IMG/VR virus record: IMGVR_UViG_3300037755_000473 | Coordinates: 1,788 to 65,787 of that record | Source of the DNA: a virus | Lineage: Duplodnaviria > Caudoviricetes | DNA: 64,000 nucleotides | Direction: 5' to 3' (one strand) | Shown here: positions 1,281 to 32,534 of the stretch, one piece after another | Numbering within the stretch: the stretch's first letter is position 1 | Layout of the letters: every line of letters begins with the position of its first letter | Notes under the pieces: model-generated | Told to the model about the DNA's origin: nothing | The model's database searches: none | What the model saw: the letters and a program-made list of their open reading frames with translations, nothing else | Position numbers and translations under genes: made by a program

Positions 1281-1865
1281 CTAGACCTTGATGCTATGCG
1301 CCGAGCACAGCTCGCGGAGCGCGTCGCGGAATTCGCGCTCGACCTTGGTCATCTTGAACACACGCTTTGCGAACGCGGCGATCTGCGCCTTCGCGTCACC
1401 GCGTGACAGCTTGTCGGGGCTCGCGGCCTTCGACTTACCGCGCGTCGCGTGTTGCTTCGCCGCGGCATTGGGAGCCATCTTGCGAAGCAAGCGAGACAAC
1501 GCGATGCCGTCATGCCACGTGCATTTGCCCGCGCGTTGCTGAAACGCTCGCATCGCCTCTTCGAGATTGGCGTAGTTCACGAGCACCGATTTGTACTCGC
1601 TGCATCGCACGCTAGCCGACGTTCCGGCTTTCGTGCGGTCGCCCTTCCATTGCATCGTCTCGCACAGCGTGTCGAGAGTCGCGTTCACGTCCTGCGCGGG
1701 GATCGCTTTGCCCTTGTACTGGGCTCTCGCGATTTTTACACACTGTGTTAACAGCGAGCCCGACGCGTTCACTTCGCGCAGTCCCTTCGCGATTGCGCCC
1801 GTGATTGCGGACACAGCGTTACGGTTGACTTTCGGTGCGATCACTTCAGTTGCTACGGTAGCCAT
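1281..1865 (-). CDS. Hypothetical protein (194 aa, Ala/Lys-rich)
   Basis: Long ORF followed by a terminator; first gene of the leftward block. Confidence 0.8.
   Translation of the reverse strand: MATVATEVIAPKVNRNAVSAITGAIAKGLREVNASGSLLTQCVKIARAQYKGKAIPAQDVNATLDTLCETMQWKGDRTKAGTSASVRCSEYKSVLVNYANLEEAMRAFQQRAGKCTWHDGIALSRLLRKMAPNAAAKQHATRGKSKAASPDKLSRGDAKAQIAAFAKRVFKMTKVEREFRDALRELCSAHSIKV
1736..1750. promoter_or_regulatory. Operator-like site with one mismatch (TTACACACTGTGTTA) inside a CDS
   Basis: 14 of 15 bases match the recurrent palindrome. Confidence 0.5.
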
Positions 1866-2046
1866 TGCGTTTCACCTTTGATGTGTTGAGAGGAACATCC
1901 TCACCATACAGCTGCTAGGAAAGCACGCGACAGGCGCGAGCACGCCGTCACCCCACCCCCGGTACCGGACCAAAGGGACCCGCCGTGCCGTCGTCTCTTA
2001 TCCCCTTCGTCAACATGTCCCCTATAATTTTCATTCGTGTGCGCTA

Positions 2047-2076
2047 TTGACACACGAATGCTTCGCCACTTATTCT
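2047..2076 (+). promoter_or_regulatory. Putative sigma70-type promoter for the rightward block
   Basis: TTGACA-N18-TATTCT upstream of the RBS and ATG at 2104, in the divergent intergenic region. Confidence 0.5.
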
Positions 2077-2103
2077 CGCGATACACCAAACCACGGAGGC
2101 ACC

Positions 2104-2727
2104 ATGACCCACGAAGACCGAGGCATCCATTGGCCGCGCGAGAACTTCCCGTCGAAAGACCGGCTCATTGAGCTGCCGCCACTCGCTCTCGCCAGCACGA
2201 TTCAACTCACGCAGGGCCGAGCTCGCGCCATCCAGGCAGGAGGTCACGTCGGCTTGTGGCCGCTCGAGCTCTCCAAGCACTTCGCCGAGGTCTACACCTT
2301 CGAGCCGCACCCCGACTTGTTTCTGTGCTTGGTGCGAAACGTCCCGAGCAACGTGATTCCGATCAATGCGGTATTGGGACGTACTCCCGGCACAGCACCG
2401 TTCCTCGCGCGCGGGGGCACGGGTGGAGTCAGCTGCGTTAGCCCCGCGGTCACAAAGGACACCATCAACGTCGCGCGGGTGGTGGTGGACGACCTGGCTC
2501 TGGACGCGTGTGACTTGATCGTCTTGGACATCGAAGGGTCGGAGCTTGAAGCCCTGCTCGGGGCAAAAAATACCATCGAGAAGTTCTCCCCCGTGCTCCA
2601 CCTTGAAGTGTGGAACTCGATGGAGAAAAACAAACTGGGTCGCACGGAGGACTTATTTGCTTTGCTAGATTTATGGGGGTATCGGCAAGTCGGCGAGACT
2701 GGAAAAGACCGAATCTACGTGCGATGA
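2104..2727 (+). CDS. FkbM-family SAM-dependent methyltransferase (copy 1)
   Basis: AIQAGGHVG, YTFEP and DLIVLDIEGSE motifs; GGAGG RBS before ATG 2104. Confidence 0.85.
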   Translation: MTHEDRGIHWPRENFPSKDRLIELPPLALASTIQLTQGRARAIQAGGHVGLWPLELSKHFAEVYTFEPHPDLFLCLVRNVPSNVIPINAVLGRTPGTAPFLARGGTGGVSCVSPAVTKDTINVARVVVDDLALDACDLIVLDIEGSELEALLGAKNTIEKFSPVLHLEVWNSMEKNKLGRTEDLFALLDLWGYRQVGETGKDRIYVR

Positions 2728-3026
2728 CCGACGAAGAATTCTTCACCGCGATCTATCTCGTCTGCGGGTCTCTCCCCTCGAAGCCCGAGAAGCAGAAGAT
2801 GGTTACTTCGATGTCGACGATGTATCGGCGCAAGCTGCCTAACAACATGGAAGAGACCTGGCTCGTCGCTGACGAAGCCGAGTATGAAGCGCAGATCGAT
2901 TTGCGTGTGTTGCACGATCCTGCGTACATGCGCTACTTCGACAAGGCGGCAGCGCTCGGTATTAGGGTCGGGGAGTTCGGCAAGTATCTAGCATGGGCCG
3001 AGGCGTACGAGGCACGACGACAGTGA
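2724..3026 (+). CDS. Hypothetical protein
   Basis: ATGA overlap with the upstream gene. Confidence 0.65.
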   Translation: MTDEEFFTAIYLVCGSLPSKPEKQKMVTSMSTMYRRKLPNNMEETWLVADEAEYEAQIDLRVLHDPAYMRYFDKAAALGIRVGEFGKYLAWAEAYEARRQ

Positions 3027-3346
3027 AAGACCCCGCGCACTACGTCCGTACCGTTGTCGAGCTCGACTTCGGGCGACCGCTTGACGAGTTGCTCGCGCTG
3101 GTCCTCCTGGCGTGTGGACGGCCCCCGCCGATGAAGCCGTACGGGCCGGTGGGGCACTGGAAGCAGGCGGCGTCGAACATCTTGTTGGACAGCGTACCGG
3201 GGGCACGACGGGCGGATGTCTCGCGGTATATACACAACGTCGTGCTGATCGCGTTGAACTGGGCGAGGGGTAAAGGGCTCGGCAGCACGAATCAGATCGA
3301 GAGCTATGCGCTCCAGATCAAGTCGGCACGGAAGGCTTGGACGTGA
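3023..3346 (+). CDS. Hypothetical protein
   Basis: GTGA overlap with the upstream gene. Confidence 0.6.
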   Translation: MKDPAHYVRTVVELDFGRPLDELLALVLLACGRPPPMKPYGPVGHWKQAASNILLDSVPGARRADVSRYIHNVVLIALNWARGKGLGSTNQIESYALQIKSARKAWT

Positions 3347-3543
3347 ACAACGACGAGATCGTGACGGCAATCGTGCTCGAGCTTGCGGAGCAGTTTCCGC
3401 ACGGGCGTGGCACGAACGTCTACTCCGACCGGCGCGTGATCTTGTTTGCGTTGAAAAAATACACCACGCCGTGGGTCCCGTCGGAGTATCTGATTCAGGA
3501 TTGCATGCGGGCGTTGCTCGCGCCAGATTTCGAATACCGTTGA
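3343..3543 (+). CDS. Small hypothetical protein
   Basis: GTGA overlap with the upstream gene. Confidence 0.55.
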   Translation: MNNDEIVTAIVLELAEQFPHGRGTNVYSDRRVILFALKKYTTPWVPSEYLIQDCMRALLAPDFEYR

Positions 3544-3589
3544 CAATCGTGTGCGTATACGACACATTCACCAAACTTGAGGGAGTGGC

Positions 3590-3961
3590 ATGAGCAAGTA
3601 CATCATTCGGCCGACGCGGAAAGGGTTCGGGGTTTATCACGGCAGGACCGTCTTCGGTCGCATGAAGCTGGTGCAAGAGCACGAGCGGTTGTGGGACGCC
3701 GAGCAGCAGACGCTGCACATGGTCACGCAGGATCATCATCGGGAGCTCGACTATCGCCGCGTTAGCAACCAAGTCATGTCGACCAACATGATGGAGCCGC
3801 GCAACGATGAGGAGCATATCTACACAGCTCTCCTGCCCGCGGGCAAAAAGCCGGCGAACGTTGACGAGTCGGAGGAGTTCGCGCCGCGGGCTCGTTCGCG
3901 CCGCGGTGCTCGCTCGATGACAAACGCGCGAGCCAATCGGCGCAATCCGACATCATCGTGA
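3590..3961 (+). CDS. Hypothetical protein whose 3' end runs across a junction into acquired DNA
   Basis: GGGAG RBS; the ORF crosses the 13-bp duplication at 3877-3906. Confidence 0.55.
   Translation: MSKYIIRPTRKGFGVYHGRTVFGRMKLVQEHERLWDAEQQTLHMVTQDHHRELDYRRVSNQVMSTNMMEPRNDEEHIYTALLPAGKKPANVDESEEFAPRARSRRGARSMTNARANRRNPTSS
3877..3906 (+). repeat. 13-bp direct repeat GTTCGCGCCGCGG x2 (3877-3889, 3894-3906), junction signature
   Basis: Read directly; coincides with the start of a 5'-truncated tail gene. Confidence 0.8.
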
Positions 3962-4125
3962 CGTATCTGCGCGCGGGCTCCATGTACTTCCGTCGCCAGC
4001 GCGACCGCTACGCGATCGAATACACGTTGACCGATGACATCGCCGCAAACCGCACGCTCGGGCAATTCGGCATGAACTTGAAATTGCGCTTGCAGTGGCA
4101 ACTCGTCTCGACGCAAGGAGCTTAG
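3895..4125 (+). pseudogene. 5'-truncated remnant of a phage tail-associated protein
   Basis: Frame reads PRCSLDDKRASQSAQSDIIVTYLRAGSMYFRRQRDRYAIEY...GMNLKLRLQW, resembling the C-terminus of a phage tail-module protein recalled from memory; no start codon for this part, in-frame TGA at 3862. Confidence 0.6.
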
Positions 4126-4129
4126 CGCC

Positions 4130-4936
4130 ATGACCGCCGCCTATCTTTTCTACGCACCGCAATTTCGCCCGTTGTCGCCGGCCGGCGCGATCATGCCGAA
4201 CTGCTATTTGCAGTTTTATCTAACCGGCACGACGACGCCGACCGACATTTACGCCGACGCGGGCCTCACGACGCCGCTCGCCAACCCGCTCGAGGCGAAC
4301 GCGGCCGGCGAGTTCGTCGAGATTTACCTCGATCCGCTCATTACGTACCGCGTGCAACTATTCACCGAGGACGACGTGTTGGTGCGCGATACGGATCCGC
4401 TCGCGCCGCCGCGTGACTATCCGCCGGGCACGATCGTTTGGTTTTACGGTGACGCAACCGCGCGCGATGCGGCGTACCCGCCGGACCTTTGGCAGGTGCT
4501 CGACGGCACGAACGGCACGCCCGACGCGCGCGATCGCTTTCCGATCTTCGCGGGTGGCACGTACGCGGCCGGCGATATGGGCGGCGCCGCGGGCGCGACG
4601 TCGGCCGCGGGCGCGCACGATCACGGCGGCGCGGTTTCAGCCGAGGTGTTGACGCTCGCGCAAACTCCGTTGCACGGGCACCGATTGCTCGATCGAGGCG
4701 CCGGATCCGGCATCGCCGACGCAACGGGCCTGACCTCGGTGCAAAGCATCGGGGGTATTCGCAACGTCGCCGGGGGCGCATACGTCGAGGACAACTCGCT
4801 AGGTACTCCGTTCGTCGAGCCCGCCGGTTCAGGCGATCCGCACACCCACGATATCGCCGCGGAGCTCGATCACGATCACACAGTGACGTTGACGCCGCCG
4901 TTTATTGCACTTTGGGCGATGATGCGCCGCGCATGA
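4130..4936 (+). CDS. Tail fibre/spike protein (tailspike-type N-terminal anchor plus collar-like C-terminal region)
   Basis: N-terminal GTTTPTDIYADAGLTTPLANPLEANAAG anchor motif; PPGTIVWF...DGTNGTPDARDRF collar motif; H-x-H motifs; terminal PPFIALWAMMR. Confidence 0.75.
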   Translation: MTAAYLFYAPQFRPLSPAGAIMPNCYLQFYLTGTTTPTDIYADAGLTTPLANPLEANAAGEFVEIYLDPLITYRVQLFTEDDVLVRDTDPLAPPRDYPPGTIVWFYGDATARDAAYPPDLWQVLDGTNGTPDARDRFPIFAGGTYAAGDMGGAAGATSAAGAHDHGGAVSAEVLTLAQTPLHGHRLLDRGAGSGIADATGLTSVQSIGGIRNVAGGAYVEDNSLGTPFVEPAGSGDPHTHDIAAELDHDHTVTLTPPFIALWAMMRRA

Positions 4937-5355
4937 ACTACCGCCCGCGCCATTTCCTGTTGCAAGAGCTCGTGCCGCGCGAAGTATTCGACGCGCGCGG
5001 CAACGGCGCGTGGGAGCTGCTCGACGCGCGCGCGCTCATAACCGCCGATGCATTGCGCGATAAGTTCGGCGTGTGCGTCGTCAACGATTGGCACGAGGAT
5101 GGGCGATTCAACGAGTCGGGCTTTCGCGACTCCGCGTCGTCGACGGGCGCGAAATATTCGCAGCACCGCTACGGCCGCGGGCTCGATTGCAAATTCGCCA
5201 AAGCGACGCCGCGCGAAGTGTTCGACTATCTGCGCGCGCACGCGGAGGATTTTCCGTACCTGACGACGCTCGAGGACGTGGAAGCCACGCCGACTTGGCT
5301 CCATTTCGACGTTCGGAACAACTTCACGCCGGGCATACGGATCGTCAAACCATGA
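4933..5355 (+). CDS. Endolysin, peptidase M15-type Zn peptidoglycan endopeptidase
   Basis: SGFR...YSQHRYGRGLD...WLHFDVR zinc-binding pattern; next to holin-like genes. Confidence 0.8.
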   Translation: MNYRPRHFLLQELVPREVFDARGNGAWELLDARALITADALRDKFGVCVVNDWHEDGRFNESGFRDSASSTGAKYSQHRYGRGLDCKFAKATPREVFDYLRAHAEDFPYLTTLEDVEATPTWLHFDVRNNFTPGIRIVKP

Positions 5356-5750
5356 TCGAGCTAGATCCCGTTTCGATCGGCTTCAAGGTGTGGACCACCG
5401 TCAAGCCGTGGCGTCGACTCAAACAAGCGCGCAACCGGCGGCGTGCGCGTCTTGGCAAACCGCCGCTGATCATCACAGAGGACGACGACAACATGTTACC
5501 CAAGGGCACCATGACCTATACGGGCGCCGCCGGCGCGATCATCACGCCGATCGTAACGACGGTGCTCACCGCAGCGGGTATCGGAGAATGCACGGCGGCC
5601 GAGCTCGCGGCGGATCCGTCGTGCGTCGGCGCCTCGCAGCTCGCCGGGGCGCTGATCACGGCTGGCTTTGCGATCATCGCCGTCCTTGGCAGGAAACGTG
5701 CAGCAAAAAACCACGCGGCCGAACTTGAGGCCGCTAAGGGACTGTCGTGA
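5352..5750 (+). CDS. Holin-like membrane protein with basic N-terminal extension
   Basis: Two hydrophobic segments; directly follows the endolysin. Confidence 0.55.
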   Translation: MIELDPVSIGFKVWTTVKPWRRLKQARNRRRARLGKPPLIITEDDDNMLPKGTMTYTGAAGAIITPIVTTVLTAAGIGECTAAELAADPSCVGASQLAGALITAGFAIIAVLGRKRAAKNHAAELEAAKGLS

Positions 5751-6112
5751 CGCTCAACGGCAAAACGAAAATCACGGTCTCAATCGGTGCCGTCATCGCT
5801 GCGATTGCCGCGGCGTGGAGCGGCCATGAGTGGCTAGAGAAGCATCTTGCGGCGCAGTTCGTTTCCCCGGCCTACGCTCAGGACTTGAAAGAGCAGCTCG
5901 ACCAGGTGAAAGGCGACACCAACGATCTTAAGTCGCAAGTGCAGGATATTCGGGCACAGCAGATTGCGGGCCTGAACCATCGGGCGCACATGTTGCGTCG
6001 TGCGATATTCGGTCCGGCCGAGCTGTCGGCCGAAGACATCAAACGCGCGGCAGCAGCACTCGATGCGCAGAACGTTCCGCAATCCGGTCGGAGCATTGGA
6101 GCCAGCCGATGA
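5747..6112 (+). CDS. TM-anchored coiled-coil lysis-cassette protein (spanin-like, tentative)
   Basis: N-terminal TM segment followed by a heptad-like region. Confidence 0.45.
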   Translation: MTLNGKTKITVSIGAVIAAIAAAWSGHEWLEKHLAAQFVSPAYAQDLKEQLDQVKGDTNDLKSQVQDIRAQQIAGLNHRAHMLRRAIFGPAELSAEDIKRAAAALDAQNVPQSGRSIGASR

Positions 6113-6390
6113 ACCACGAAGTCGAAGCGTTCGAAGGCGAGCTCCGTCAGCTGCGTGAGCGGGAGCTCAAGCTCGCCAAGGTCGTCAACGCCTGCGAGGA
6201 ATACCTGTTCCGCAACCCGCAGAATGCGTTCGAGACGGCCGATGCCGACGAGATGTGCATCCTGAACCTCAAGAGGCTCGTCGAGGACCCCGCGGTCGCG
6301 AACTGGATGGACCGCATGCGCCAGGCCGGGAAAGCGCCCGTACGGCGATTTACGGACGGCACACCGCCCTTCGGGAAGGAACCCTCATGA
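6109..6390 (+). CDS. Hypothetical protein
   Basis: ATGA overlap with the upstream gene. Confidence 0.65.
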   Translation: MNHEVEAFEGELRQLRERELKLAKVVNACEEYLFRNPQNAFETADADEMCILNLKRLVEDPAVANWMDRMRQAGKAPVRRFTDGTPPFGKEPS

Positions 6391-6737
6391 GCCTGAAGGC
6401 CGTCGTCCAACAGCTGCGCCAGCTCCCGTACACGGAGATGAAGGCGCTCGCGGAGATTGTCAGCGGGAAAATCCCCGACCGGCCGTCTGAGATCAACATT
6501 GCAGACGCGCTCTCTTCCCTGCCGCAGATCACGAACGAGGAGCTCGACAACGAGCAGAGATTTCTCGCCACCTTCTTCAACAAGAAGCGAACAATCTCGA
6601 TCCGAACCGCTAATGGTGCCCACGGCCCGTGGACGGTATCGTGCGAAGGCGGTGTCGTCATTACGAGCGCGACCCTGCGCGGAGCACTGTCGGAATTTTT
6701 GGATGCACAAGCGGCTTACGTCGCACTGAGGAAATAA
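6387..6737 (+). CDS. Hypothetical protein
   Basis: GGAAGGA RBS, ATGA overlap. Confidence 0.65.
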   Translation: MSLKAVVQQLRQLPYTEMKALAEIVSGKIPDRPSEINIADALSSLPQITNEELDNEQRFLATFFNKKRTISIRTANGAHGPWTVSCEGGVVITSATLRGALSEFLDAQAAYVALRK

Positions 6738-6738
6738 C

Positions 6739-7107
6739 ATGCGCGCAGCACTTCGAGTTTTGGATGCACACAAGGTCAATCCCGTGAACGACGGTATTGT
6801 GATCGGCGTCATGGACGGACCTGGGCACGGCGGCGCGTCACACGAGTACCGCATCACGTTGCCCGACGGGCGCAACACGTTCATCAACTTCCAGAACGGA
6901 CCGATTAAAGAATCGGGCGTGAATGGACTCACGCACGAAGTGCTGCTTGCGATTCTGCTGGATCGCCTTGAAGGATTTCAGGCAGGACAGTACGCGTGTT
7001 GGGAAAACGCGGACGCACTGATCGACTTGGGCCGCGCGTTGAAGGTTCTGAAATCGCGCACCGAGAATCGAATTGCACGAGGCGTCGAAGGCACGCACGA
7101 GGTTTAA
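6739..7107 (+). CDS. tad1: Tad1-like anti-Thoeris signalling-molecule sponge protein
   Basis: GGASHEY, INFQNG, LLDRLEGFQAG, ENADAL and NRIARGVEGT match the conserved Tad1 pattern (GGAYHEY, FQKG, DRLKSFQAG, ENACAL, DRIERNVLGT). Confidence 0.85.
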   Translation: MRAALRVLDAHKVNPVNDGIVIGVMDGPGHGGASHEYRITLPDGRNTFINFQNGPIKESGVNGLTHEVLLAILLDRLEGFQAGQYACWENADALIDLGRALKVLKSRTENRIARGVEGTHEV

Positions 7108-7108
7108 G

Positions 7109-7276
7109 ATGGCACGAGCACGAATAGACGGGCACCGGCACCACGTGATTCTCACGGACCCCCAGCACAAGGGGCTCGAGAAACTCGCGTCGTCGACCGG
7201 CCTCACAACGTCTGAGCTGCATCGTCGGGCAATCGACATGCTCATCGCCGCGCACAAGAAGGAAAAGGCGAAGTGA
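7109..7276 (+). CDS. Ribbon-helix-helix (CopG/Arc-like) DNA-binding protein
   Basis: HHVILTDPQHKGLEKLASSTGLTTSELHRRAIDML fits the beta-strand plus two helices pattern. Confidence 0.7.
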   Translation: MARARIDGHRHHVILTDPQHKGLEKLASSTGLTTSELHRRAIDMLIAAHKKEKAK

Positions 7277-7458
7277 TTTTCGAGACAGTGATCCTCGTCC
7301 CGACACGAGTCGAAATCCACGCAGACAACCGCATCATTGCGAGTGAAGAAGCTCGTGAGATTGCGCGTCGCTATCCGCTGATCGGCGAGCACTGCGCGAA
7401 GGTGTTGTCGGTCAACGTCAAGCCGGGACAGGACCCCCCGCCGAAACGAGCCGCATAA
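7273..7458 (+). CDS. Small hypothetical protein
   Basis: GTGA overlap with the upstream gene. Confidence 0.55.
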   Translation: MIFETVILVPTRVEIHADNRIIASEEAREIARRYPLIGEHCAKVLSVNVKPGQDPPPKRAA

Positions 7459-7485
7459 AAAAGCCCCGGCTGTTACACCGGGGCT
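7457..7485 (-). terminator. Terminator-like hairpin with its U-tract on the - strand
   Basis: AGCCCCGG/CCGGGGCT stem preceded by an A-tract on the + strand. Confidence 0.6.
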
Positions 7486-7541
7486 CGGAGGCTGACGACG
7501 AGCAAGTTCACGACTGCGGGATTTAGTATAGGTCCAGAGCG

Positions 7542-8180
7542 ATGAAGACACAACGTTTCCCCAAGATTATATGGCCGCAGCAGATTGCTCGTACCCATCT
7601 GCTTCGGTACACGTCAAACGTACGCGTGCTGCACAGGACAATCGAGCACTGCAAAAAGCGCGGGCTCGCTGTGCAAGCTGGCGGGCACTGCGGCGTGTGG
7701 CCGCGGTATCTGGCGGCCAGGTTCAAGCGAGTGGTCACGTTCGAGCCGCATCCCGAGCTGTTCCCCGTGCTGTGTCAGAACGTAGAGAACAGCAACGTGG
7801 TGGCGCACAACGTGGCGCTGGGAAACAGCATCGCTCCAGTCGAGTTCGTTCTACAGGGCGGCACGATGGGCGGTAGCCACGTCGATGCCGCAGCACTAAA
7901 GAAGGGGCGGAAGTTCGTCATGGTGGAGCAAGCGAAGCTCGACAGCTTCGAGCTATCGCCCGATCTGATCGTCTTGGACATCGAAGGCTCCGAGCTCGAC
8001 GCGCTCCTGGGGGCGGAGGATACGATTCGCCGCTGCCGCCCTGTGCTGCATCTTGAGCTGTGTGGGCACATCGAGCGGTACAAACGGGGCACGTCGGACA
8101 TGCTGCGGGATTTTTTGAATGGCTATGGATACCAAGAAGTCAGTCGCGCCAACAAAGACGCCATCTTCGTCTGTCGCTGA
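7542..8180 (+). CDS. FkbM-family methyltransferase (copy 2)
   Basis: AVQAGGHCG, VTFEP and DLIVLDIEGSE motifs. Confidence 0.85.
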   Translation: MKTQRFPKIIWPQQIARTHLLRYTSNVRVLHRTIEHCKKRGLAVQAGGHCGVWPRYLAARFKRVVTFEPHPELFPVLCQNVENSNVVAHNVALGNSIAPVEFVLQGGTMGGSHVDAAALKKGRKFVMVEQAKLDSFELSPDLIVLDIEGSELDALLGAEDTIRRCRPVLHLELCGHIERYKRGTSDMLRDFLNGYGYQEVSRANKDAIFVCR

Positions 8181-10209: not shown

Positions 10210-10792
10210 GTTTTTCGGCCCGCCCGGTGTCGGCAAAAGCTACGCGCGGCGGCTGTTGCTCGAAGCGGATAGCAGGCTCGACCTTCACACCGCGTGCGGG
10301 TCCGTGAAGGTGCTCAAAGACCACACTGAGTTTTACAACAGCTGTGTCGTGGCACAGCGAATGTACCAAGAGCACTGTGTCGTCCCTAAACGCGGTGCGA
10401 CGGGACCGGCCAACTTCCGGATGCGTGCTGCGAGAGCTGCCGCCGCCGCTGTGAGCAACAACATCATCGTGTTCGACGAGTCTCTGCTGCAAGCGACGCT
10501 CTCGTTTTCGTACGCGTGTCGGCACAACGCAGAGAATGTCGCCGAGTTCTTCTCCTCCGTGCCGCTTCCCGACGTAGCAATTTTGTGTTACGCCCCGAGC
10601 GAATTAGTCGTAGCGCGTAACAGCGGACGCGCTCGTAACTGGGGTTCGTCGGCGCTTGATTGTCTTCCGAGCGTTGAGCTCATTAAGAACATGCTGACTG
10701 AGCGCAACGGGGTTTGGTTCACATTGAACACGCAGAAGAACGAGCGCGAAATTACGCTGCATCTAATCGAGGGGCTTAAATGCTTTCTGTAG
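10199..10792 (+). CDS. P-loop kinase (nucleotide/sugar kinase-like)
   Basis: N-terminal VEFFGPPGVGKS Walker A; IVFDE; PLPDVAIL as in NMP kinases. Confidence 0.7.
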   Translation: MRVEFFGPPGVGKSYARRLLLEADSRLDLHTACGSVKVLKDHTEFYNSCVVAQRMYQEHCVVPKRGATGPANFRMRAARAAAAAVSNNIIVFDESLLQATLSFSYACRHNAENVAEFFSSVPLPDVAILCYAPSELVVARNSGRARNWGSSALDCLPSVELIKNMLTERNGVWFTLNTQKNEREITLHLIEGLKCFL

Positions 10793-11493
10793 TCTGTTGG
10801 TTGTGGCCGCCACGAGAGAGATACCGCTCGCAGTTCAACGCGAGCCACGTCAACATCTTTCGCAACATGATCGAGCGGCATCTGCATATCCCTCACGAGG
10901 TGGTGTGCATTACGAACATACCGAAGAATATCGATCCGCGTGTGCGCATCGTTCCGTTATGGGATACGTGGGCCGAGGTTCCGTCGCCGCACGGAGGGCT
11001 CTCTCCAGCGTGCTATCGACGCCTGCCTGCGTTCGGCGAGCACATGCGCGAGATTCTCGGGCCGAGGTTTATTTCCTTCGACCTGGACCTCGTGATCGTG
11101 GACGACATCACTCCGCTGGCAACGCGCACCGAAGACTTCATCATCTGGGGCTCGAAGCTCCGCCGCACGCCGTACAACGGCTCGATGTGGATGATGAACG
11201 CAGGGGCGCGGAAACAGATTTATGAGGAATTCGACCCACTGAAGACGCCCGCGCTCACGCTGAAGGCGGGGTTCCACGGTAGCGATCAGGCGTGGATTTG
11301 CTACAGGCTCGGTCACACGGAAGCAACATGGACGCCGGAACACGATGGCGTGTATTCTTTCCGGACTGATGTCGCGTTGAAACGGTATCGACTGCCCCCG
11401 GATGCACGAATCGTGTTTTTCCAGGGACACCATGATCCGCAATCGCGTGTCGACAACTCTCGTGCTCCGTGGATCAAAGACCACTATAAATAA
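10780..11493 (+). CDS. Glycosyltransferase (GT8-like, DxD motif)
   Basis: FISFDLDLVIVDDITPL, YNGSMW and GSDQAWI motifs. Confidence 0.75.
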   Translation: MLSVVCWLWPPRERYRSQFNASHVNIFRNMIERHLHIPHEVVCITNIPKNIDPRVRIVPLWDTWAEVPSPHGGLSPACYRRLPAFGEHMREILGPRFISFDLDLVIVDDITPLATRTEDFIIWGSKLRRTPYNGSMWMMNAGARKQIYEEFDPLKTPALTLKAGFHGSDQAWICYRLGHTEATWTPEHDGVYSFRTDVALKRYRLPPDARIVFFQGHHDPQSRVDNSRAPWIKDHYK

Positions 11494-15980: not shown

Positions 15981-16211
15981 ATGGTCATGAAAACGCGCTA
16001 CTACGCCGACGGCGGTAAGGTCTCTACCGATAAGCCGCCGCCCAAGCCGCGCCCCCCTGCGCCGAAGCCGCCGCCCAAGGGCGACACCGTGCAGAAGGAC
16101 CCGAAGGGCAGCACGACTGACACTCTTCGCAATCACCGGGCAAGACAGATGGAGGCGCTGGGCCTGAAAGACGGCGGCAAGGTGAAGCGCCGCAAGAAGA
16201 AGCGCTACTAG
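15981..16211 (+). CDS. Small basic Pro/Lys-rich protein
   Basis: GGAGG RBS; operon position. Confidence 0.6.
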   Translation: MVMKTRYYADGGKVSTDKPPPKPRPPAPKPPPKGDTVQKDPKGSTTDTLRNHRARQMEALGLKDGGKVKRRKKKRY

Positions 16212-20800: not shown

Positions 20801-21111
20801 GGCGGTACACGAAGTTGGGCCGGATCGTGCAACAGCCGAACGAGAACATTCGGCGGTTGGCGAAGTACGACCGCTGGCTCGAGGAAGGTGAGCGGATTAC
20901 GAACGTGGAAGTGTCGGTGTTGCCGGTCACGTCGCCACCGTTCGTCATCAACAACATCGTCATCGGCCCTGATTCCGACCGTTTCGCGTACTACGCGAGC
21001 GGCGGCGTCGACGGTGAGGACTACACTGCAACTGTCACGATCACGACCAGCATCGCGCAGGTGCGCGAAGACGAATTGCTGTTCGGGGTGAAGGAGATCA
21101 GCCGTGGCTGA
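20791..21111 (+). CDS. Putative fibre-tail adaptor protein
   Basis: YDRWLEEGERI...GGVDGEDYTATVTITTS pattern of small beta-rich tail adaptors. Confidence 0.55.
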   Translation: MRLGRYTKLGRIVQQPNENIRRLAKYDRWLEEGERITNVEVSVLPVTSPPFVINNIVIGPDSDRFAYYASGGVDGEDYTATVTITTSIAQVREDELLFGVKEISRG

Positions 21112-22165
21112 GAAAGTCTTTTCGAACAACGCGAGCTCGCTGCTCGCCGCGAGCATCGACGACAACGACACCGTTGTTCAAGTCGATTCCGGCGCAGGCG
21201 CGCTCTTTCCTTCACCTGGCGCTGGGCAACACTTCGTAGCAGCGTTGGTAAACGCCAGCGGGGACCTCGAGATCGTCAACTGCACGAGCCGCACCGGCGA
21301 CCTCATTACAGTCGTGCGCGGACAAGAAGGCACGGCTGCACAAGCGTGGACAAACGGCGTTACGCGCTTCGAGCTTCGCCTCACTGCTGGCGTCATGGAC
21401 GACCTGTTGCAAAAGACCGGCGATGCAATGACCGGCGATTTGCTCATGGGGGGCAATGAGATTCAGGATGCGCGTCTCACCGAAGATACGGTGATGGTTG
21501 GCGGGCAGACTGTCGGCACTGCGATTCGTGGCGCTGAGGATGATGCTTCGAACGAGATTGCTGTTCCGGGTGACGGGTCAAGGGCGACGGCGGGCGGTTC
21601 TCCGCTCGTGACCTTGGCCGACAACTTGCTGACGTTGCTGCCTATCGGTTTCATCGGCATGTGGTACGGCTCGCTCGGCAGCTTGCCCGCTGGTTGGCAA
21701 AACTGCGACGGTACTAACGGCTCTCCCGATATGCGTGGGTTCTTCCCTCGCGGCGCTGGAGGCTCTCTAGCCCTCGGAGCCACCGGAGGTGCTGCTACAG
21801 CGTCTGGGAATACTGACGCCGCTGGCGGCCATAGCCACACGGTTACGGTCGACGGGCATGCTCTTACGACTGCTGAGCTCCCGGCTATTAGTCCGCGTGT
21901 GCTCGACCGCGGGGGTGGTTCCGGTGTTGCAGACGGTTCTGGGCTTACCGCTTGCCAAAGTCTCGCAGGCATTCGTAACGTCGCTGAAGGTAGCTACGTC
22001 ACGAACAATTCTCTCGGCACACCGTTTATCGAGCCGCTGGGTGGCGGCAATGCGCACGATCACTCTGCCGCTTCTAACGCCGTCGGCAATCACACGCACG
22101 GCCTCGGTAGCATCTCCACCATCCCGCCGTACAAGGCGGTGTACTTCATCATGAAGGTGTCGTGA
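21104..22165 (+). CDS. Tail fibre with collar domain
   Basis: FSNNASS anchor domain; PIGFIGMWYGSLGSLPAGWQNCDGTNGSPDMRG collar motif; HSH/HDH/HTH motifs. Confidence 0.8.
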   Translation: MAEKVFSNNASSLLAASIDDNDTVVQVDSGAGALFPSPGAGQHFVAALVNASGDLEIVNCTSRTGDLITVVRGQEGTAAQAWTNGVTRFELRLTAGVMDDLLQKTGDAMTGDLLMGGNEIQDARLTEDTVMVGGQTVGTAIRGAEDDASNEIAVPGDGSRATAGGSPLVTLADNLLTLLPIGFIGMWYGSLGSLPAGWQNCDGTNGSPDMRGFFPRGAGGSLALGATGGAATASGNTDAAGGHSHTVTVDGHALTTAELPAISPRVLDRGGGSGVADGSGLTACQSLAGIRNVAEGSYVTNNSLGTPFIEPLGGGNAHDHSAASNAVGNHTHGLGSISTIPPYKAVYFIMKVS

Positions 22166-22476
22166 TGTTTCTATTTGCAAACAACGCGTCCTCGTTCTTG
22201 ATGCAGGACATCACTGCTCTCGACACGGAGTTCGAGATCAACCCTGCTGATGGCGACAAGTTTCCCGAGCCCGGTTATGGGGAAGAGTTCGCGATTACGT
22301 TGCAGCATCCGCTTACGGGGGAGCGCGAGATCATGTACGTGCAGGAGCGCCTGTACGGAAACATCTTTACGGTGTTGCGGGGGCAAGAAGGCACGGTCGC
22401 GCAAGCGTTTCCAGTCAACACCATCGTTGCGCACAACCTCACCGCCGGTGTTCTTGAGTTCATTCGAGACCTATGA
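22162..22476 (+). CDS. Stand-alone tail-fibre anchor domain protein
   Basis: FANNASS...RGQEGT...LTAG, homologous to the N-termini of both neighbours. Confidence 0.7.
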   Translation: MMFLFANNASSFLMQDITALDTEFEINPADGDKFPEPGYGEEFAITLQHPLTGEREIMYVQERLYGNIFTVLRGQEGTVAQAFPVNTIVAHNLTAGVLEFIRDL

Positions 22477-23741
22477 GCGAACCACGCGAGTTCATGTTTG
22501 CAAATTTCGCCCGCTCTACGCTGGCGGCGGGAATCTCTGCGTCTGCAACATTGTTGCGCGTTCCCGAGAGCCAGGGCGATATTTTTCCTAACGTCGACCC
22601 GACCTATAGCGAAATCTTCGCTGCTGTTCTGACACACGGCTCGGCGTACGAGATTGTCTACGTCACGCAGAAAGCGGCCGACGTGTTTACTATCGAGCGC
22701 GGCAAAGAAGGCACGACCCCAACGGCGTTCCCCGAAGGCGCGCTTATCGTGCATACCGTCACGGCGGGGTTTTTCACGCAGCAGGCTAATGCGCCTGTTC
22801 AAGTCATTGCGCCTGTTCTTTCCGGTGAGCTCAGCATGTACGGCGCTGCGCTGTTGTCGTGGACGGTACCGTCGCAACCGATTAGCGGGTACGAACTTGA
22901 ACGTTCAGTTGATGGCGGGGCGTTTGCGCTCCTCGAGCAGCTCGGCGAGGTAAATGAATACGAGGACGCAACAGTTGTTTCGCCTAGTACGTACTCGTAC
23001 CGGATCAAAGCAATTAGCTCTATTGGTGACGAGTTCGATAGCGAGTATTCGAACGCCGTCGGCATCGACACGGCGTTTTTCGAAACATTCATGTTGATTC
23101 ACGTCGAAGGCGGACAGATTTACGAAGTCACTGGGTTCCCTGCGGTTACACCGGTCGGTGATGGCGAGGTATCTAGCGTGCAGTCGAGATTCGGCACGCA
23201 GTCGTACCATAACCCAGGCACTTCTAACCAAGGCACTGACTTCGTTAGAGTCGAAGGCGACGCCGATGATTTTGTGTTCCCAGGCGAGTTCACGTGGGAG
23301 GGGTGGTTCTACATAAACGCGTTCCACGACATCTTCGATAACTTTTTTGCGAACAACATCAACTTCCCTACCGCGGGGTTCATTCAGCTCGCTCGGTGGA
23401 ACAGTAACAGCTCGTTCTTGTTTAATAGCTCCGCTGGTAGCGCGGCCGGGGGTGACGTGATTCCAACGGGAGAATGGATTCATGTTGCAGTTACGCGCGA
23501 CGCCGCCGACGACATCCGTATCTTTATGAACGGTGTTTCGCAGATCGCACCCGTTAATCACCCTGGCACTATTGGCGGTGACGTTGATGGTGTTTCGTCG
23601 TTTGACGTTTGCCGCGGCCAAGCTTCCGATAACGCCGATCTTGACTGCTACTTCGAAGAAATTCGTGTCACGAAGGCGTGTCGGTACACTGCGAACTTCA
23701 CTCCACCGACTGAGCCCTTCCCGCCGTTCCCAGGAATCTAG
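22473..23741 (+). CDS. Tail fibre/receptor-binding protein (anchor, FN3-like, LamG/ConA-like)
   Basis: YELERSVDG FN3-like segment; FTWEGWFY...WIHVAVTR...EEIRVTK LamG motifs. Confidence 0.75.
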   Translation: MSEPREFMFANFARSTLAAGISASATLLRVPESQGDIFPNVDPTYSEIFAAVLTHGSAYEIVYVTQKAADVFTIERGKEGTTPTAFPEGALIVHTVTAGFFTQQANAPVQVIAPVLSGELSMYGAALLSWTVPSQPISGYELERSVDGGAFALLEQLGEVNEYEDATVVSPSTYSYRIKAISSIGDEFDSEYSNAVGIDTAFFETFMLIHVEGGQIYEVTGFPAVTPVGDGEVSSVQSRFGTQSYHNPGTSNQGTDFVRVEGDADDFVFPGEFTWEGWFYINAFHDIFDNFFANNINFPTAGFIQLARWNSNSSFLFNSSAGSAAGGDVIPTGEWIHVAVTRDAADDIRIFMNGVSQIAPVNHPGTIGGDVDGVSSFDVCRGQASDNADLDCYFEEIRVTKACRYTANFTPPTEPFPPFPGI

Positions 23742-27960: not shown

Positions 27961-28358
27961 ATGGACACTGAAAAATTCAAAGCCGAAGTTCGTAGCGACG
28001 AAGGATGGGACGCGTTTTCGACACCATCGGCTATGGGTTTTTGATCGACCGTAAGAAGGGCGGCGGCCTGCCAAAACCTGTTGCAGAATTCTGGTTGGAC
28101 TATCTCGTCAACGAGCGTGTCGACCACATGCGCAAGCGTTGGCCGCCGTTCGACAAGCAGCACCCGATTGTCCAGAACGCGTTGCTGAACATGTCGTATC
28201 AGATGGGCGTGGGCGGCGTGTTGAACTTCAAGAAGATGATTTTGGCGCTCGAACGAGGGGATCGGGCTGAGGCGAAGGTCCAAGCCCTTGATTCCGAATG
28301 GGCTCGCCAAACACCCCAGCGCGCTCAACGAGTTGCAGCGGCCATCGGCGGGGGTTAG
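27961..28358 (+). pseudogene. T4-type (GH24-like) endolysin disrupted by a deletion and frameshift
   Basis: Frame from 27961 gives MDTEKFKAEVRSDEGW then stops at 28044; another frame gives TIGYG...LLNMSYQMG...DSEWARQTPQRA; E-to-T distance is 23 nt versus 45 nt in T4 lysozyme. Confidence 0.8.
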
Positions 28359-28359
28359 C

Positions 28360-28773
28360 ATGGAACCCGTTACAGCAGCTGTTCTGAAGTGGGCGGGCAA
28401 GAAAATTGCCGGTTGGTGGGTGAAGACGCGACCGCTATCGAAGGAAGCACGCGAAACCCGCCAGTTCAAACGCGATCAGAACAAGACGCTCAAGAAGCAA
28501 GGTCTTTCACGCAAGGAGAGGAAAATGAAGCTGCTCGAAATTCTTGCACAGTTCAGCGCCAATCGTCGCACGTCGACCAAGGCCGGTGTTGTCGGCCTTG
28601 TGCCGTTCGTGGCGATGCTGCCGTTCTACGATACCGTCAACGATTACATCGTTCGCGCGTGTCAGTCCGAGGAAGGTCCGACGTTGTTCTTGGTCGGCGG
28701 TGCGGTCGTATGGGCAACGATGCTCGTCACCGCGCGTTTGAGCAAGACGCCGGCGACTCCCGGCGCTCTGTAA
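28360..28773 (+). CDS. Holin-like membrane protein with basic N-terminal extension
   Basis: Two hydrophobic segments; follows the endolysin. Confidence 0.55.
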   Translation: MEPVTAAVLKWAGKKIAGWWVKTRPLSKEARETRQFKRDQNKTLKKQGLSRKERKMKLLEILAQFSANRRTSTKAGVVGLVPFVAMLPFYDTVNDYIVRACQSEEGPTLFLVGGAVVWATMLVTARLSKTPATPGAL

Positions 28774-29135
28774 TGGCGGGAGAAAAAAGAACTGTAGGTA
28801 TCTCGGTCATCGCGTCACTCGTCGCGATGGCCGCGGTCCTACTCCCTTCCGCTTGGTTTCTGGTGAAGCCGGCCCTCGCACAATCCGTAGCCGAGGAGCT
28901 TACGGGTGTCGTCGAGCAGACTGTGCAGAAGAAGCTCGCCCCGATGAACGCGGGGTTCAAGGCTCTGCTGCAACAGAACATCGACCGGCTTCGGCGCGAG
29001 ATTGCGATTCTTGAAAACAAGGCTCACGCGGGGCCGTTACCAGAACAAGATGCCCGCGACCTGATCGACAAACGCATCGAGCTCGACGGACAGATCGCCG
29101 CGATCACTAGCATTAGGCAGGCCGAACTACCGTGA
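28773..29135 (+). CDS. TM-anchored coiled-coil lysis-cassette protein
   Basis: N-terminal TM followed by a coiled coil. Confidence 0.5.
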   Translation: MAGEKRTVGISVIASLVAMAAVLLPSAWFLVKPALAQSVAEELTGVVEQTVQKKLAPMNAGFKALLQQNIDRLRREIAILENKAHAGPLPEQDARDLIDKRIELDGQIAAITSIRQAELP

Positions 29136-29686
29136 CCCCCGTTTACTACGCCTTCCCAGCCGAGAGCCATCTGATGAAGGGTGGCGATTTCGTTTTGGGG
29201 CTTGAGAAGATCGCGAACATGCGGGACGAGATTCGCGTGCTGCACGAGCAGCACTATCAGGAGACCGAGACCCTGTACATGCAGGAGCCGTTCGATCCAG
29301 ACTATCCGCGGTACATCGCGGGCGAGAAGAACGGTACGTTCGTAGCGTTCACCTGCCGCAATGCGGGCGGCGAGATGGTGGGCTACTTGCAGTATTACGT
29401 GTACCGCAGCATGCACTCGCAGAGTATGTTGCAAGCGCGTGAAGACGCGCTGTTCTTGACTAAGAAAGTTCGCGGCGTCGGCATTGCGCCGAAGCTGCTG
29501 AAGTACGCCGAACACTGCCTGGCGCAACTCGGTTGCACACACGTGGGTATGAGTAGCAAAGCACCGTGCGGTGGTCCTGACCTCGACGCCTTTCTGCGTC
29601 GGATGGACTACACCCCGGTTGCGATGTACTACGTGAAGAAACTTGGAGTTGCCGATGCGAAAGCCGATCCAGCAAAGGCTGCTTGA
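29132..29686 (+). CDS. GNAT-family acetyltransferase
   Basis: LFLTKKVRGVGIAPKLLKYAE acetyl-CoA-binding motif A; usual position before ejection proteins in podoviruses. Confidence 0.8.
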   Translation: MTPVYYAFPAESHLMKGGDFVLGLEKIANMRDEIRVLHEQHYQETETLYMQEPFDPDYPRYIAGEKNGTFVAFTCRNAGGEMVGYLQYYVYRSMHSQSMLQAREDALFLTKKVRGVGIAPKLLKYAEHCLAQLGCTHVGMSSKAPCGGPDLDAFLRRMDYTPVAMYYVKKLGVADAKADPAKAA

Positions 29687-30752: not shown

Positions 30753-32534
30753 ATGCCCGTCGAATTAGACATTGCAGGCAACTTCGCTAAGGGACAGCAA
30801 GCGATCATTGATCGTCGCCGTGCGAAGCAGCTCGAGCGCGCACGCGACTACGAGCTCGCCTCTGCCGATGATTCGCTGGTTGGTCGTCGCAGCGGTGTGA
30901 ATCGCGAGCGCACGGCCGCGGGGCTCGATCCGTATCTGTTCCCTGATGTCGCTACGAACGGCGATCCGATGTTCGAGCGCCTCGTCGGTTGGTGGAAACA
31001 AAAGCGTGCGAACCGCGTGCTGCCTTCCAACATGATGCCGGAACAAGTGCAGTCGGTTGGCGACGAGATGAATCAGCTCGGGTTCGGGGATGACCCCGGC
31101 CTTGCTGCGGAGCTCGGCTATCGCGATGGCGGCAAAGTGAAGCGCGCCATCCCTCATTACGCCGAGGGCGGCAGCGTTGCGTCCGAAGAGGAGATGATTC
31201 GCCGGCGCGCGGCAGCGAATCGTGCGAGGAATCCAGCTCGCGTGACAAACGCCACGGAGACGGCCATTCCCCGCACGCCGCCTCGCCCCGGCTTACTTGC
31301 TCGTGGAGCAGGTGCTGTGCGAGGCGCTGTCAACACAGTCGGCAAGAAGATCGCCCCCATCGCGCTCGGCGCAACTGCGTACGAAACCGCCACCACGCCT
31401 ACGGAAGACTACCGGACGCGGTTCGGTATGGAGACGAAGGACCCGTCGTTCCTCGGCGACGTTGGTGTTCGCGCGCTCGGTGCAGCCTCCGACCTTGGCA
31501 ACGTGCTCACGGCTGGTTGGGCTGGTCAGCACTATCGTGACAAGCAGCAAGCGATTCCCACGGACGGCGGTGCGGAGCCGGCGCAGCCGGAAGCTCCGGC
31601 TGAGATTCCGAAGACGCCCGACGAAGCGATTGCCCAGCAAGCGATTGCCGAAGGCACGCAGATGGCGCAGGAAGCACAGCAAGCGAACGCGCCTCCCGGT
31701 GCAATCGATTTCTCGCAAGTCGACTTCGAGGCTGGCGACATCCCCAACATGCCTGTTCGAGATTGGGTGCAGTACCGAGCAGGTGCTGTGAGTGATCTCA
31801 TGATGCAGGGCATGAAGCCCGCCGAAGCGCACGCCGAAGTCACGCGTATGCAGCAGCAAGGATTCGTCGATTACGCTCAGCAGGCGCTGATGCACTTGCA
31901 GGGCGGCAATCCGAACGCTGCTGCGACGGCGCTGCGTGCTGCGTACCAGTACTTCCCGAACGGCACTGACGTGCAGCTCGGCGTGCAGCAAGGTAAGGAC
32001 GGTCAACCCGTGATCGTCGGCCAAGGTCGCGACGAAGAGACCGGTGAGCCGAAGGGCCAACCGATGATTATCAACGGCGAGCGTCTCGCGGTGATGATCG
32101 AGAATTTTTCCAACCCTGACGCGTTCCGCACGTGGACGAAGGACTGGCGTGATGAGCAGTTCAACCGACAGAAGTACGAGGAAGTCGAGAAGCCCGAAGC
32201 CGAATCGAACGCCCGCTACCGGGATCGAGCGGGTCGCGCGGCACTCGTTAATGCTGAGGCCGACCGAATCCGGGCCGGAGCTTCAGGCGCTGGCGGTCGG
32301 CGTCAGGTCGATCTTGATCGAGCAAACGCTGCGTTCACAGACGCAGTAGAGCTGATGGGGTACACCGACGAAGCCGGTGCCGATCAGATCATGAGCCTCA
32401 TGTCGCAAATCTACGCGCGCTCCTCGTGGCAGTATCCGGAGGTGATCGACTTCGTTCGCAAGGCGAAGCGTGAAGGTCGCCTCCCCGAAGTCATGGAAGC
32501 CTTGGGGTTGGGAACGCCAGCACTAGAGGAATGA
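30753..32534 (+). CDS. Internal virion protein
   Basis: Ala/Gln-rich; repeats the DGGKV/YAEGG motif; lies between ejection genes. Confidence 0.65.
   Translation: MPVELDIAGNFAKGQQAIIDRRRAKQLERARDYELASADDSLVGRRSGVNRERTAAGLDPYLFPDVATNGDPMFERLVGWWKQKRANRVLPSNMMPEQVQSVGDEMNQLGFGDDPGLAAELGYRDGGKVKRAIPHYAEGGSVASEEEMIRRRAAANRARNPARVTNATETAIPRTPPRPGLLARGAGAVRGAVNTVGKKIAPIALGATAYETATTPTEDYRTRFGMETKDPSFLGDVGVRALGAASDLGNVLTAGWAGQHYRDKQQAIPTDGGAEPAQPEAPAEIPKTPDEAIAQQAIAEGTQMAQEAQQANAPPGAIDFSQVDFEAGDIPNMPVRDWVQYRAGAVSDLMMQGMKPAEAHAEVTRMQQQGFVDYAQQALMHLQGGNPNAAATALRAAYQYFPNGTDVQLGVQQGKDGQPVIVGQGRDEETGEPKGQPMIINGERLAVMIENFSNPDAFRTWTKDWRDEQFNRQKYEEVEKPEAESNARYRDRAGRAALVNAEADRIRAGASGAGGRRQVDLDRANAAFTDAVELMGYTDEAGADQIMSLMSQIYARSSWQYPEVIDFVRKAKREGRLPEVMEALGLGTPALEE

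Follow-up and report, generated by a model that had tools for sequence, protein, structure and literature searches.

A probably acquired fibre and lysis module in a tailed-phage genome with a broken lysozyme gene

The window analysed here is a stretch of 64,000 nucleotides (nt), bases 1788-65787 of one 65,787-bp virus record (IMG/VR record IMGVR_UViG_3300037755_000473) that is classed as linear and 100% complete and whose source is probably a sediment metagenome. Near its left end, from approximately 3.82 or 3.88 kb to approximately 5.7 or 6.1 kb, lies a block of five co-oriented features: a decayed small tail-fibre gene, an intact tail-fibre gene, and genes for a zinc peptidase, a holin-like protein and a transmembrane (TM) coiled-coil protein (TMcc). 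We lean towards the view that this block is an acquired lysis and fibre module, and that its peptidase is now likely to be doing lysis. Three independent lines of evidence, namely its composition, its absence from relatives and the gene order of donor-type contigs, indicate that the block is foreign. A preliminary description, made from the letters and open reading frames (ORFs) alone, had proposed the non-homologous capture of the late-operon end of another phage, and all three lines lend good support to that proposal.

Gene content, composition and synteny of the block

All genes of the block lie on the plus strand. The first, a fragment described below, is followed by the tail-fibre gene (4130-4936; 268 amino acids, aa), whose product combines a donor-type N-terminal domain with a distal half related to a resident fibre, and by the peptidase gene (4933-5355; 140 aa), a candidate endolysin of the M15/LAS (Hedgehog/DD-peptidase) fold that matches the phrog_894 family 'endolysin' with E 2e-18. 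Hydropathy then shows, as the preliminary description had it, a holin-like protein (5352-5750; 132 aa) that is charged towards its N terminus and has two TM domains (TMDs) towards its C terminus, and the i-spanin-like TMcc protein (5747-6112; 121 aa), in which a coiled coil follows an N-terminal TMD and which also resembles its counterpart in the donor-type contig L090. The four intact genes are linked by stop/start overlaps (ATGA or GTGA), the start of the peptidase gene overlapping the stop of the fibre gene (ATGA), and the TMcc stop overlaps in turn the start (ATGA) of the family-core resident gene at 6109-6390.

The composition of the block, measured from approximately 3850 to approximately 5700, sets it apart from the rest of the genome. 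CGCG and GCGC together reach 58.1 per kb, compared with 21.7 per kb elsewhere, so the enrichment that had been noticed by eye is quantitatively right, and the ratio of observed to expected CpG (CpG o/e) is 1.69, compared with 1.32. When intervals of 1.8 kb are ranked across the genome, those starting at 3301-4501 come out on top for CpG o/e (z 3.8), for CGCG plus GCGC (z 4.6) and for tetranucleotide distance (z 5.6), the last of which identifies 3.85-5.7 kb as the strongest compositional outlier of the genome. The tetranucleotide vector of the block correlates at 0.936 with that of the other genes of L090, as opposed to 0.803 with the rest of its own genome.

For the second line of evidence, the block was compared with 67 viral and 68 metagenome loci that were found through the terminase large subunit (TerL) and belong to a phage family with genomes of 58-65 kb, and with five complete relatives (G001-G005). 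TerL identity is 64-79% in the nearest relatives covering more than a few kb, and at most 72% in those that cover the insertion site. Homologues of the remnant, the N-terminal domain of the fibre, the peptidase, the holin-like protein and TMcc are found in none of the 67 viral and 68 metagenome loci, and none of the five features occurs in G001-G005. A megablast search of window positions 2900-7200 against 50,697 phage records likewise gave no match. The flanking genes at 6109, 6387 and 7073 and a cluster of methyltransferase and glycosyltransferase (MT/GT) genes are conserved in the TerL-related relatives. Among relatives (L013, L015, L051 and L054 included), the distance from the last leftward early gene to the homologue of gene 7073 ranges over approximately 1 to 7 kb, and since this interval varies in both length and content, the insertion site can be regarded as an accessory, moron-like hot spot. 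In the complete relative G001 (L072), the interval holds at 3590-4562 unrelated genes for small membrane proteins, secreted proteins and lipoproteins.

The third line comes from contigs of approximately 31-41 kb with genes for a P22-type coat protein, gp4, gp7 and gp10, to which we refer as donor-type. In L090 (41 kb, GC content 64%) the late operon ends with the fibre gene and genes of 140, 131 and 141 aa, followed by a convergent serine recombinase gene. Its fibre, peptidase, holin-like and TMcc proteins share 69, 71, 71 and 49% aa identity with those of the block (TMcc over the first 51 aa only), and its DNA is 71% identical to window positions 4141-5662. The peptidase gene directly follows the fibre gene in L179, and in L181 a gene of 149 aa lies between the two. 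In L251, a contig of a metagenome-assembled genome (MAG; GC content 66%), a full-length 202-aa gene of the small tail-fibre family stands directly 5' of a fibre homologue (56%), and next in line are genes for a lysin of the Amidase_2 type (Pfam E 2e-20), for two TM proteins of 77 and 93 aa, the second with a coiled coil, and for a lipoprotein-like product; the type of lysin at the operon end hence differs among donor-type members. These arrangements indicate that the order seen in the block, small fibre gene, fibre, lysin, holin-like protein and TM coiled coil, is the normal operon end of this P22-like type of phage. A small tail-fibre gene adjoining a block-type fibre gene is found only in L251, and none of 80 IMG/VR loci with a gene of the small tail-fibre family has homologues of the window's fibre, peptidase or holin adjoining it.

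The captured fibre is composite. Its N-terminal 95 aa have no counterpart in this genome, as expected from the different type of anchor noted in the preliminary description; over the C-terminal 173 aa it shares 46.6% identity with the resident fibre encoded at 21104-22165. It has 87 full-length relatives, the best of them 69% identical, on P22-like contigs. Because the N-terminal domain is without counterpart here and the preceding small fibre gene is dead, the captured fibre may be unable to dock, and its intactness may just reflect recent arrival. In donor-type contigs, the gene 5' of the fibre gene carries two copies of the fibre's own N-terminal domain of approximately 80 aa (L090, 8759-9988; L092, 8943-10004; L180, 4250-5146; L181, 5491-8004), together with Gly_rich_2 in L090 and L181 and with TIG and Laminin_G_3 in L181 only.

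The block is also continuous at the level of the assembly. One 19.6-kb Logan contig of a sediment run spans 2500-7500 as a single contig with 0 differences and 0 gaps, at a mean word depth of 25.8, and thereby argues against a chimeric splice. As regards continuity across 3877-3906 and at approximately 6100, which the preliminary description had singled out, the sequence is unbroken in this contig, which probably shares its reads with the record and is not independent of them.

Lesions and limits of the block

Where does the block begin? The preliminary description had placed its start at a tandem duplication of 13 bp, followed by a start-less remnant of a tail gene. Both elements are present. 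The sequence GTTCGCGCCGCGG occurs in exactly two copies in the window, both exact and on the plus strand, at 3877-3889 and 3894-3906 (17 nt apart, with GCTC between them, the pair spanning 3877-3906), and is absent from the other strand. The pair is one of two exact direct repeats of at least 13 nt that lie within 40 nt of each other in the 64 kb; at least one such close repeat arises in 11.5% of genomes simulated with a Markov-1 model, so that the 13-mer pair alone is mildly unusual. The other close repeat is AAGCCGCCGCCCAAG at 16032 and 16065 (16032-16082), with a period of 33.

The remnant (SLDDKR...YFRRQRDRY) is a start-less 3' part of a small tail-fibre gene, at 3892-4125 on the plus strand, with 77 codons and a stop. 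It corresponds to the C-terminal 50-78 residues of a 'tail fiber protein' family of approximately 200 aa (phrog_4950, E 1e-10), and scores 102 bits against a hidden Markov model (HMM) of the family built here, over positions 119-196 of 198. Its frame is open only from 3865, after a stop at 3862-3864, and offers no start before the GTG at 3958. The family is represented in 122 phage records, mostly of Xanthomonas, Stenotrophomonas and Pseudomonas phages of approximately 43 kb, and the remnant has six metagenome relatives of 195-315 aa with identities of up to 65% (65% to P0089 and 59% to the full-length gene of L251). The phrog_4950 proteins of Xanthomonas phage CP2-like phages are 39-51% identical to it over their C-terminal 70 or so residues; unlike their genes, that of the window is start-less, frame-broken by an insertion and readable in one frame only in its 3' part. 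No full-length ORF of approximately 190-205 aa is present at the locus: positions 119-196 of the family are encoded in one frame and positions 112-121 in another, with no start.

It is the latter match that speaks against a boundary at the 13-mer. Upstream of the duplication lies an ORF in frame 2 with 85 codons up to the lesion (3590-3844, plus strand), whose last 10 codons (3815-3844) read ...HIYTALLPAG and match family positions 112-121, and frame 1 reads SFAPRCSLDDKR from 3892 onward. The family consensus at this junction is ...(F)VT(SQ)LPAG-S-I-T-PRC-(S/M)LDDKR. Joining 3844 to 3892, and thus taking out 47 nt (3845-3891, plus strand, including the first copy of the 13-mer), restores the frame and aligns the columns of invariant residues (T, L, G, R, L, D, D, K and R) in exact register. 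Consistently, an HMM of seven sequences gives 109.7 bits for the 47-nt deletion, 102.3 for the native frame and 96.9 for a 17-nt deletion, and an HMM of 66 sequences gives 99.4, 94.2 and 92.5 bits, respectively. The 47-nt insertion is bounded by an 8-nt direct repeat, CCGCGGGC (3837-3844 and 3884-3891), and its remainder matches nothing elsewhere in the genome. Given that the homology continues in register on the 5' side and that removal of 47 nt fits best, we take the 13-mer as part of a lesion in a decayed gene rather than as a breakpoint. On our reading, the true left junction would lie at or left of approximately 3815, with which the compositional step at approximately 3850 is compatible, the distance being short. 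Slippage, or a template switch by which neighbouring sequence was copied, could have given rise to the insertion, as could filler DNA at a break.

The remainder of the 85-codon ORF has no recognisable relatives. Among 5.8 billion proteins it retrieves only itself, tblastn finds no match in 50,697 phage records or viral contigs, and hhalign against the small tail-fibre family gives a non-significant probability of 0.14%. Its composition is host-like (CpG o/e 1.17). Residues 56-76 (...EPRN...) align weakly with family positions 6-26 with both HMMs and with hhalign (E 0.02-0.4), and a real match would imply a further internal deletion of approximately 85 codons in the remnant gene. We thus read the first gene of the module as a probable pseudogene that has decayed through several lesions.

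Conceivably, the 13-mer could instead be a simple slippage duplication within one chimeric ORF from 3590 to 4125, either of 18 nt in frame with subsequent loss of one T or of 17 nt. It would then not be the scar of a recombination event, nor would it belong to an insertion of 47 nt. A 17-nt deletion does fuse both frames into one ORF of 172 aa, and the similarity of the two units extends to 18 of 19 positions with a 1-nt indel. Against this stand the family HMM scores, which for this model are the lowest of the three and fall below those of the native frame as well as of the 47-nt deletion, and the resulting insertion of 11 residues between the LPAG and PRC motifs, which is seen in no family member. 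We consider a slippage origin rather improbable but not negligible. A single gene frameshifted by a 17-nt tandem duplication was rejected as the best model on the same HMM scores and on the lack of significant homology of the N-terminal ORF.

At the right end, nt similarity to L090 reaches as far as 5662, divergence of the two holin-like proteins sets in beyond residue 120, and composition is back to host-like at approximately 5.7 kb. We count TMcc as a putative part of the module, which would then end at 6112, because its position and architecture are the same as in L090 and L251, and do so with less confidence than for the genes before it.

Lysis genes, acquired and resident

How might the acquired genes act in lysis? 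The peptidase belongs to a subfamily with 1515 representatives (E<=1e-3), mostly of approximately 140 aa. Across 72 aligned relatives, H78, D85 and H124 do not vary and D126 hardly does, and the protein has the H-x(6)-D...H zinc triad. Thirty-seven of the 72 relatives match Peptidase_M15_3 (E<=0.01, best 1.4e-7) and 11 match M15_4, and sequence comparison of this kind makes the peptidase a member of a divergent sister subfamily within the M15 clan. An AlphaFold (AF2) model has a pLDDT of 97.4, and its best match among solved structures is 1lbu, the zinc DD-peptidase of Streptomyces albus, with Z 10.9 and a root-mean-square deviation of 3.2 A over 117 of 140 residues, followed by VldE, ShhN, Ply500, LysB4, VanY, LdcB, MepA and VanX. 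Z values against endolysins are 5.5 for Ply500, 5.2 for LysB4 and 3.7 for that of T5. Foldseek returned only E-values above 0.01 for this model, the clear match to 1lbu having come from a wider structural search, and sequence and profile searches of the PDB with the peptidase yielded nothing meaningful. The label 'M15 endolysin' in the preliminary description thus stands as far as fold and zinc triad are concerned, and falls short of the Pfam threshold for Peptidase_M15_3.

The context of the gene is that of a lysis cassette: it overlaps a gene for a two-TMD protein, and the same slot is occupied by the Amidase_2 lysin in L251. Since the peptidase has no N-terminal hydrophobic segment, signal or signal-anchor-release (SAR) sequence, its export would need a holin. 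The TMDs of the holin-like protein are predicted at residues 57-80 and 91-115, followed by a basic C-terminal tail, in line with the general features of holins, and an Atlas look-up gave weak leads to holin clusters (0.85). TMcc has a predicted TMD at residues 7-27 and a helical and charged remainder, as in an i-spanin. We are fairly confident that the peptidase is an endolysin with a predicted activity on murein, and together with the adjacent holin-like protein it might suffice as a lysis pair.

The resident cassette is found at 27961-29135. It comprises a broken GH24-type lysozyme gene (27961-28358, plus strand), recognised by alignment with the endolysin of Xanthomonas phage XAJ2 and by PHROG lysozyme families, and two apparently intact companions on the same strand (28360-29135), a 137-aa protein with two TMDs (28360-28773) and a 121-aa TM and coiled-coil protein (28770-29135). 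TMcc bears a weak similarity to the latter (28% identity, E 3e-4). The ORF at 27961 begins with MDTEKFKAEVRSDEG and stops after 27 codons, and the rest of the lysozyme (...FDTIGYGFLIDRKKGGG...) is encoded in another frame. The spacing from DEG to TIG is 13 residues in the XAJ2 endolysin and only 17 nt in the window. The native lysozyme is therefore broken, as the preliminary description had stated: 22 nt are gone between the catalytic Glu (DEG) and TIGYG, the region of the catalytic Asp included, and the frame is shifted, so that 27961-28358 holds no contiguous GH24 segment with Glu, Asp and Thr, the Glu and TIGYG lying in different frames.

This slot holds a GH108 lysin in each of the five complete relatives (G001, 31589-32137; likewise G002-G005), none of which has a second recognisable lysin, and in G001 the GH108 lysin adjoins a homologue of the 28770-29135 protein. 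A Pfam scan found no GH108 in the window genome. Because the slot holds GH108 in the relatives and GH24 here, the broken GH24 lysozyme is itself a non-orthologous occupant, and the type of lysin must have changed at least once in the family. Pfam scans of the genome for Phage_lysozyme, SLT, Amidase_2, M23 and GH108 returned nothing; such scans are insensitive, and the first-look filter had missed the broken lysozyme too. With the resident GH24 inactivated by the 22-nt deletion, no intact peptidoglycan hydrolase other than the acquired peptidase was found, and most likely it is this peptidase that now performs lysis.

The preliminary description had further seen in this arrangement a muramidase being replaced by an endopeptidase, with the captured block rescuing lysis after the lysozyme had broken. 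The replacement fits our findings; the order fits them less well. A phage without endolysin cannot spread, and capture must consequently have preceded, or coincided with, the loss of the lysozyme. A genotype awaiting rescue could not have persisted and is unlikely to have existed, and acquisition, redundancy and then decay of the old lysozyme form the more parsimonious and most plausible sequence of events.

We envision a scenario whereby the module was copied from the late-operon end of an unrelated, more GC- and CpG-rich, P22-like and probably temperate podovirus lineage, and was placed by illegitimate recombination in the hypervariable accessory region with which the rightward operon opens, 5' of the MT/GT cluster and terL. 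Its first gene would have been truncated on arrival or have decayed since, being start-less, with a probable internal deletion and a 47-nt insertion, and the fibre, peptidase, holin-like and TMcc genes would have remained intact and become translationally coupled into the resident gene at 6109. Co-oriented and coupled as it is, the module is likely to be expressed with the rightward genes. The peptidase would then build up in the cytoplasm, be released through the adjacent holin and cut peptide bonds in murein.

Competing explanations, known systems and neighbouring genes

Several points weigh against the view that the block is an acquired module whose peptidase serves lysis. The transfer is inferred and not traced, as no donor of high nt identity was found (the best reaches 71%), and no close relative that would date the insertion (TerL identity above 89%) covers the locus. 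The Logan contig and the record probably have their reads in common, and the check that the contig affords covers 2500-7500. Expression of the block, endolysin activity and any function of the captured fibre are inferred, as is the order of events, and the Pfam lysin scans behind the probable status of the peptidase as the only intact lysin are insensitive. The peptidase scores 14.8 bits against Peptidase_M15_3 (PF08291), for which the cut-off is 23.2; the holin-like protein has no match in Pfam, PHROG or NCBIfam; TMcc matches no named family; and a pattern search found no o-spanin or lipobox ORF in 5300-6450, in 28300-29300 or in the whole genome. Finally, TMcc is host-like in composition and matches L090 in its first 51 residues only, which leaves the right boundary uncertain between approximately 5.7 and 6.1 kb.

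Some of these points would also fit a reading in which the block is foreign and yet a moron-like passenger, lysis being accomplished by something else or the genotype being defective, the lesion being an artefact or another lysin having gone unrecognised, and the M15 cassette being redundant or silent. The lysozyme lesion does lie outside the stretch covered by the Logan contig, Pfam scans could have overlooked a lysin, and the visible decay of the first gene indicates that not the whole block is under selection. A deletion of 22 nt is nevertheless atypical of sequencing error, and the mean word depth on the single contig also tells against this reading. The four downstream genes are intact, with start/stop overlaps that run through to a conserved resident gene, and the slot broken here is the very one that holds the single recognisable lysin in five of five complete relatives. 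We therefore judge a mere passenger to be unlikely.

It is much less probable still that the block is ancestral and has disappeared from the relatives sampled, with the amino-acid content of its proteins accounting for the unusual composition. The relatives are indeed distant (TerL identity of at most 72% where the site is covered), and the locus is hypervariable in all of them. However, CpG o/e and tetranucleotide usage shift together over four unrelated genes and come closer to donor-type contigs than to the phage's own genome, the module occupies a natural position at the operon end in several P22-like contigs but lies ahead of terL here, and a second, resident lysis cassette exists at 27961-29135. 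A chimeric assembly, in which a block from a co-occurring phage was spliced in by the assembler, is hardly credible even for a metagenome-assembled record whose resident and captured fibres have a related distal domain, because the Logan contig covers the region without differences and at one word depth, two precise joins 2 kb apart would be needed, fibres only 47% identical in protein are too little alike to mislead an assembler, and at the right end the last stop codon overlaps the start of a resident gene (ATGA).

If the block was acquired as we favour, one may go further and ask whether unrelated lineages of podoviruses pass on tail fibre and lysis cassette together, as a single 'exit-and-entry' unit, with this genome as a rare natural intermediate in a turnover of endolysins (from the GH108 of the family through the now dead GH24 to M15) in which the captured fibre is also used by the virion. 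We consider this extended proposal doubtful.

Phage genomes are mosaics in which 'morons' are inserted at operon boundaries (the Hendrix/Hatfull model), classic morons being single genes with their own promoter and terminator. The block shares with such insertions its foreign composition, its site between conserved modules, which is hypervariable in relatives, and its illegitimate junctions with truncated genes. It differs from classic morons in being a five-gene piece of a late operon that is translationally coupled into the resident operon. In a scan for promoters and terminators, nothing inside the block exceeded shuffled sequences and no plus-strand terminator-like site was found there, and the only promoter-like site of the scan lies at 2047-2076.

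The closest experimental parallel is provided by lactococcal phage P335 with a crippled endolysin, which experimentally gained prophage genes, namely part of a structural (neck passage) gene, a holin gene and the gene of an endolysin of a different type, and by the finding that, within one host, an endolysin of one type can stand in for that of another at little cost (Oechslin et al., PLoS Biol 2022; PMC9371310). As in that case, part of a virion gene and a whole lysis cassette travel together in the block. In the lactococcal system, homologous recombination acted at the orthologous locus and the new genes displaced the old ones; the module of the window, in contrast, is ectopic and without flanking homology, the old cassette is kept with a pseudogenised lysin, and fibre genes were co-transferred. 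In addition, the hosts here are probably Gram-negative.

With regard to the enzyme, the peptidase is like Ply500 and LysB4 (both L-alanoyl-D-glutamate peptidases), the T5 endolysin and 1LBU in its fold and H-x6-D...H triad, and like other M15/LAS endolysins in being small and single-domain and in lying beside a holin-like gene. Unlike these enzymes, it belongs to a separate subfamily of approximately 140 aa, from which no PDB chain is detectable by sequence. It thereby points to a large subfamily of LAS peptidases of 140 aa (approximately 1500 representative clusters) that is structurally confident and as yet unstudied.

That phages swap lysis genes is already well established, and the window is a clear natural example rather than a new kind of system. 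Non-orthologous replacement of endolysins has usually been inferred from finished genomes or forced in the laboratory. In this genome the two states coexist: the former enzyme, now dead, still occupies the canonical slot, and the new cassette sits ectopically. The scars of insertion and the co-transferred fibre gene are preserved as well. The genome is thus useful as a worked case of lysis being rewired through illegitimate recombination at an accessory hot spot.

The block is set in a rightward run of genes from approximately 2047 to 41279, with replication and early genes oriented leftward. The run comprises accessory genes, the MT/GT cluster, terL at 11493, and genes for portal, capsid, internal virion proteins, a 2795-aa protein and three fibres with a common N-terminal anchor. 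The latter three are consecutive (21104-23741), share the same anchor of approximately 100 aa (phrog_8469/6427), and encode a 353-aa fibre, a 104-aa anchor-only ORF and a 422-aa protein with a Laminin_G_3 domain. The Rhizobium phages RHph_TM3_14A and kin (TerL identity 48%) were considered as syntenic relatives and rejected, synteny not being found.

Closer to the block, three co-oriented ORFs of 138, 117 and 68 aa (2610-3543) have a coding-like GC content at third codon positions and no relatives in PHROGs, TerL-related loci or donor-type contigs. FkbM-type methyltransferase paralogues flank the variable region at 2047-2727 and 7542-8180; a candidate 49-nt repeat between them was rejected as such, since it represents only a conserved motif with 86% identity. 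In the donor-type contig L181, a Methyltransf_21 gene (10583-11434) that is 25-27% identical to these paralogues lies just past the lysis genes. The best terminator-like site within 1800-7600 is a strong hairpin at 7461-7486 on the minus strand, with 10 pairs, 7 of them GC, and a T-run, between two plus-strand genes. A 122-aa protein encoded at 6739-7107 matches phrog_2428 (unknown function, E 1e-29) and has a 52%-identical homologue in the viral contig L141.

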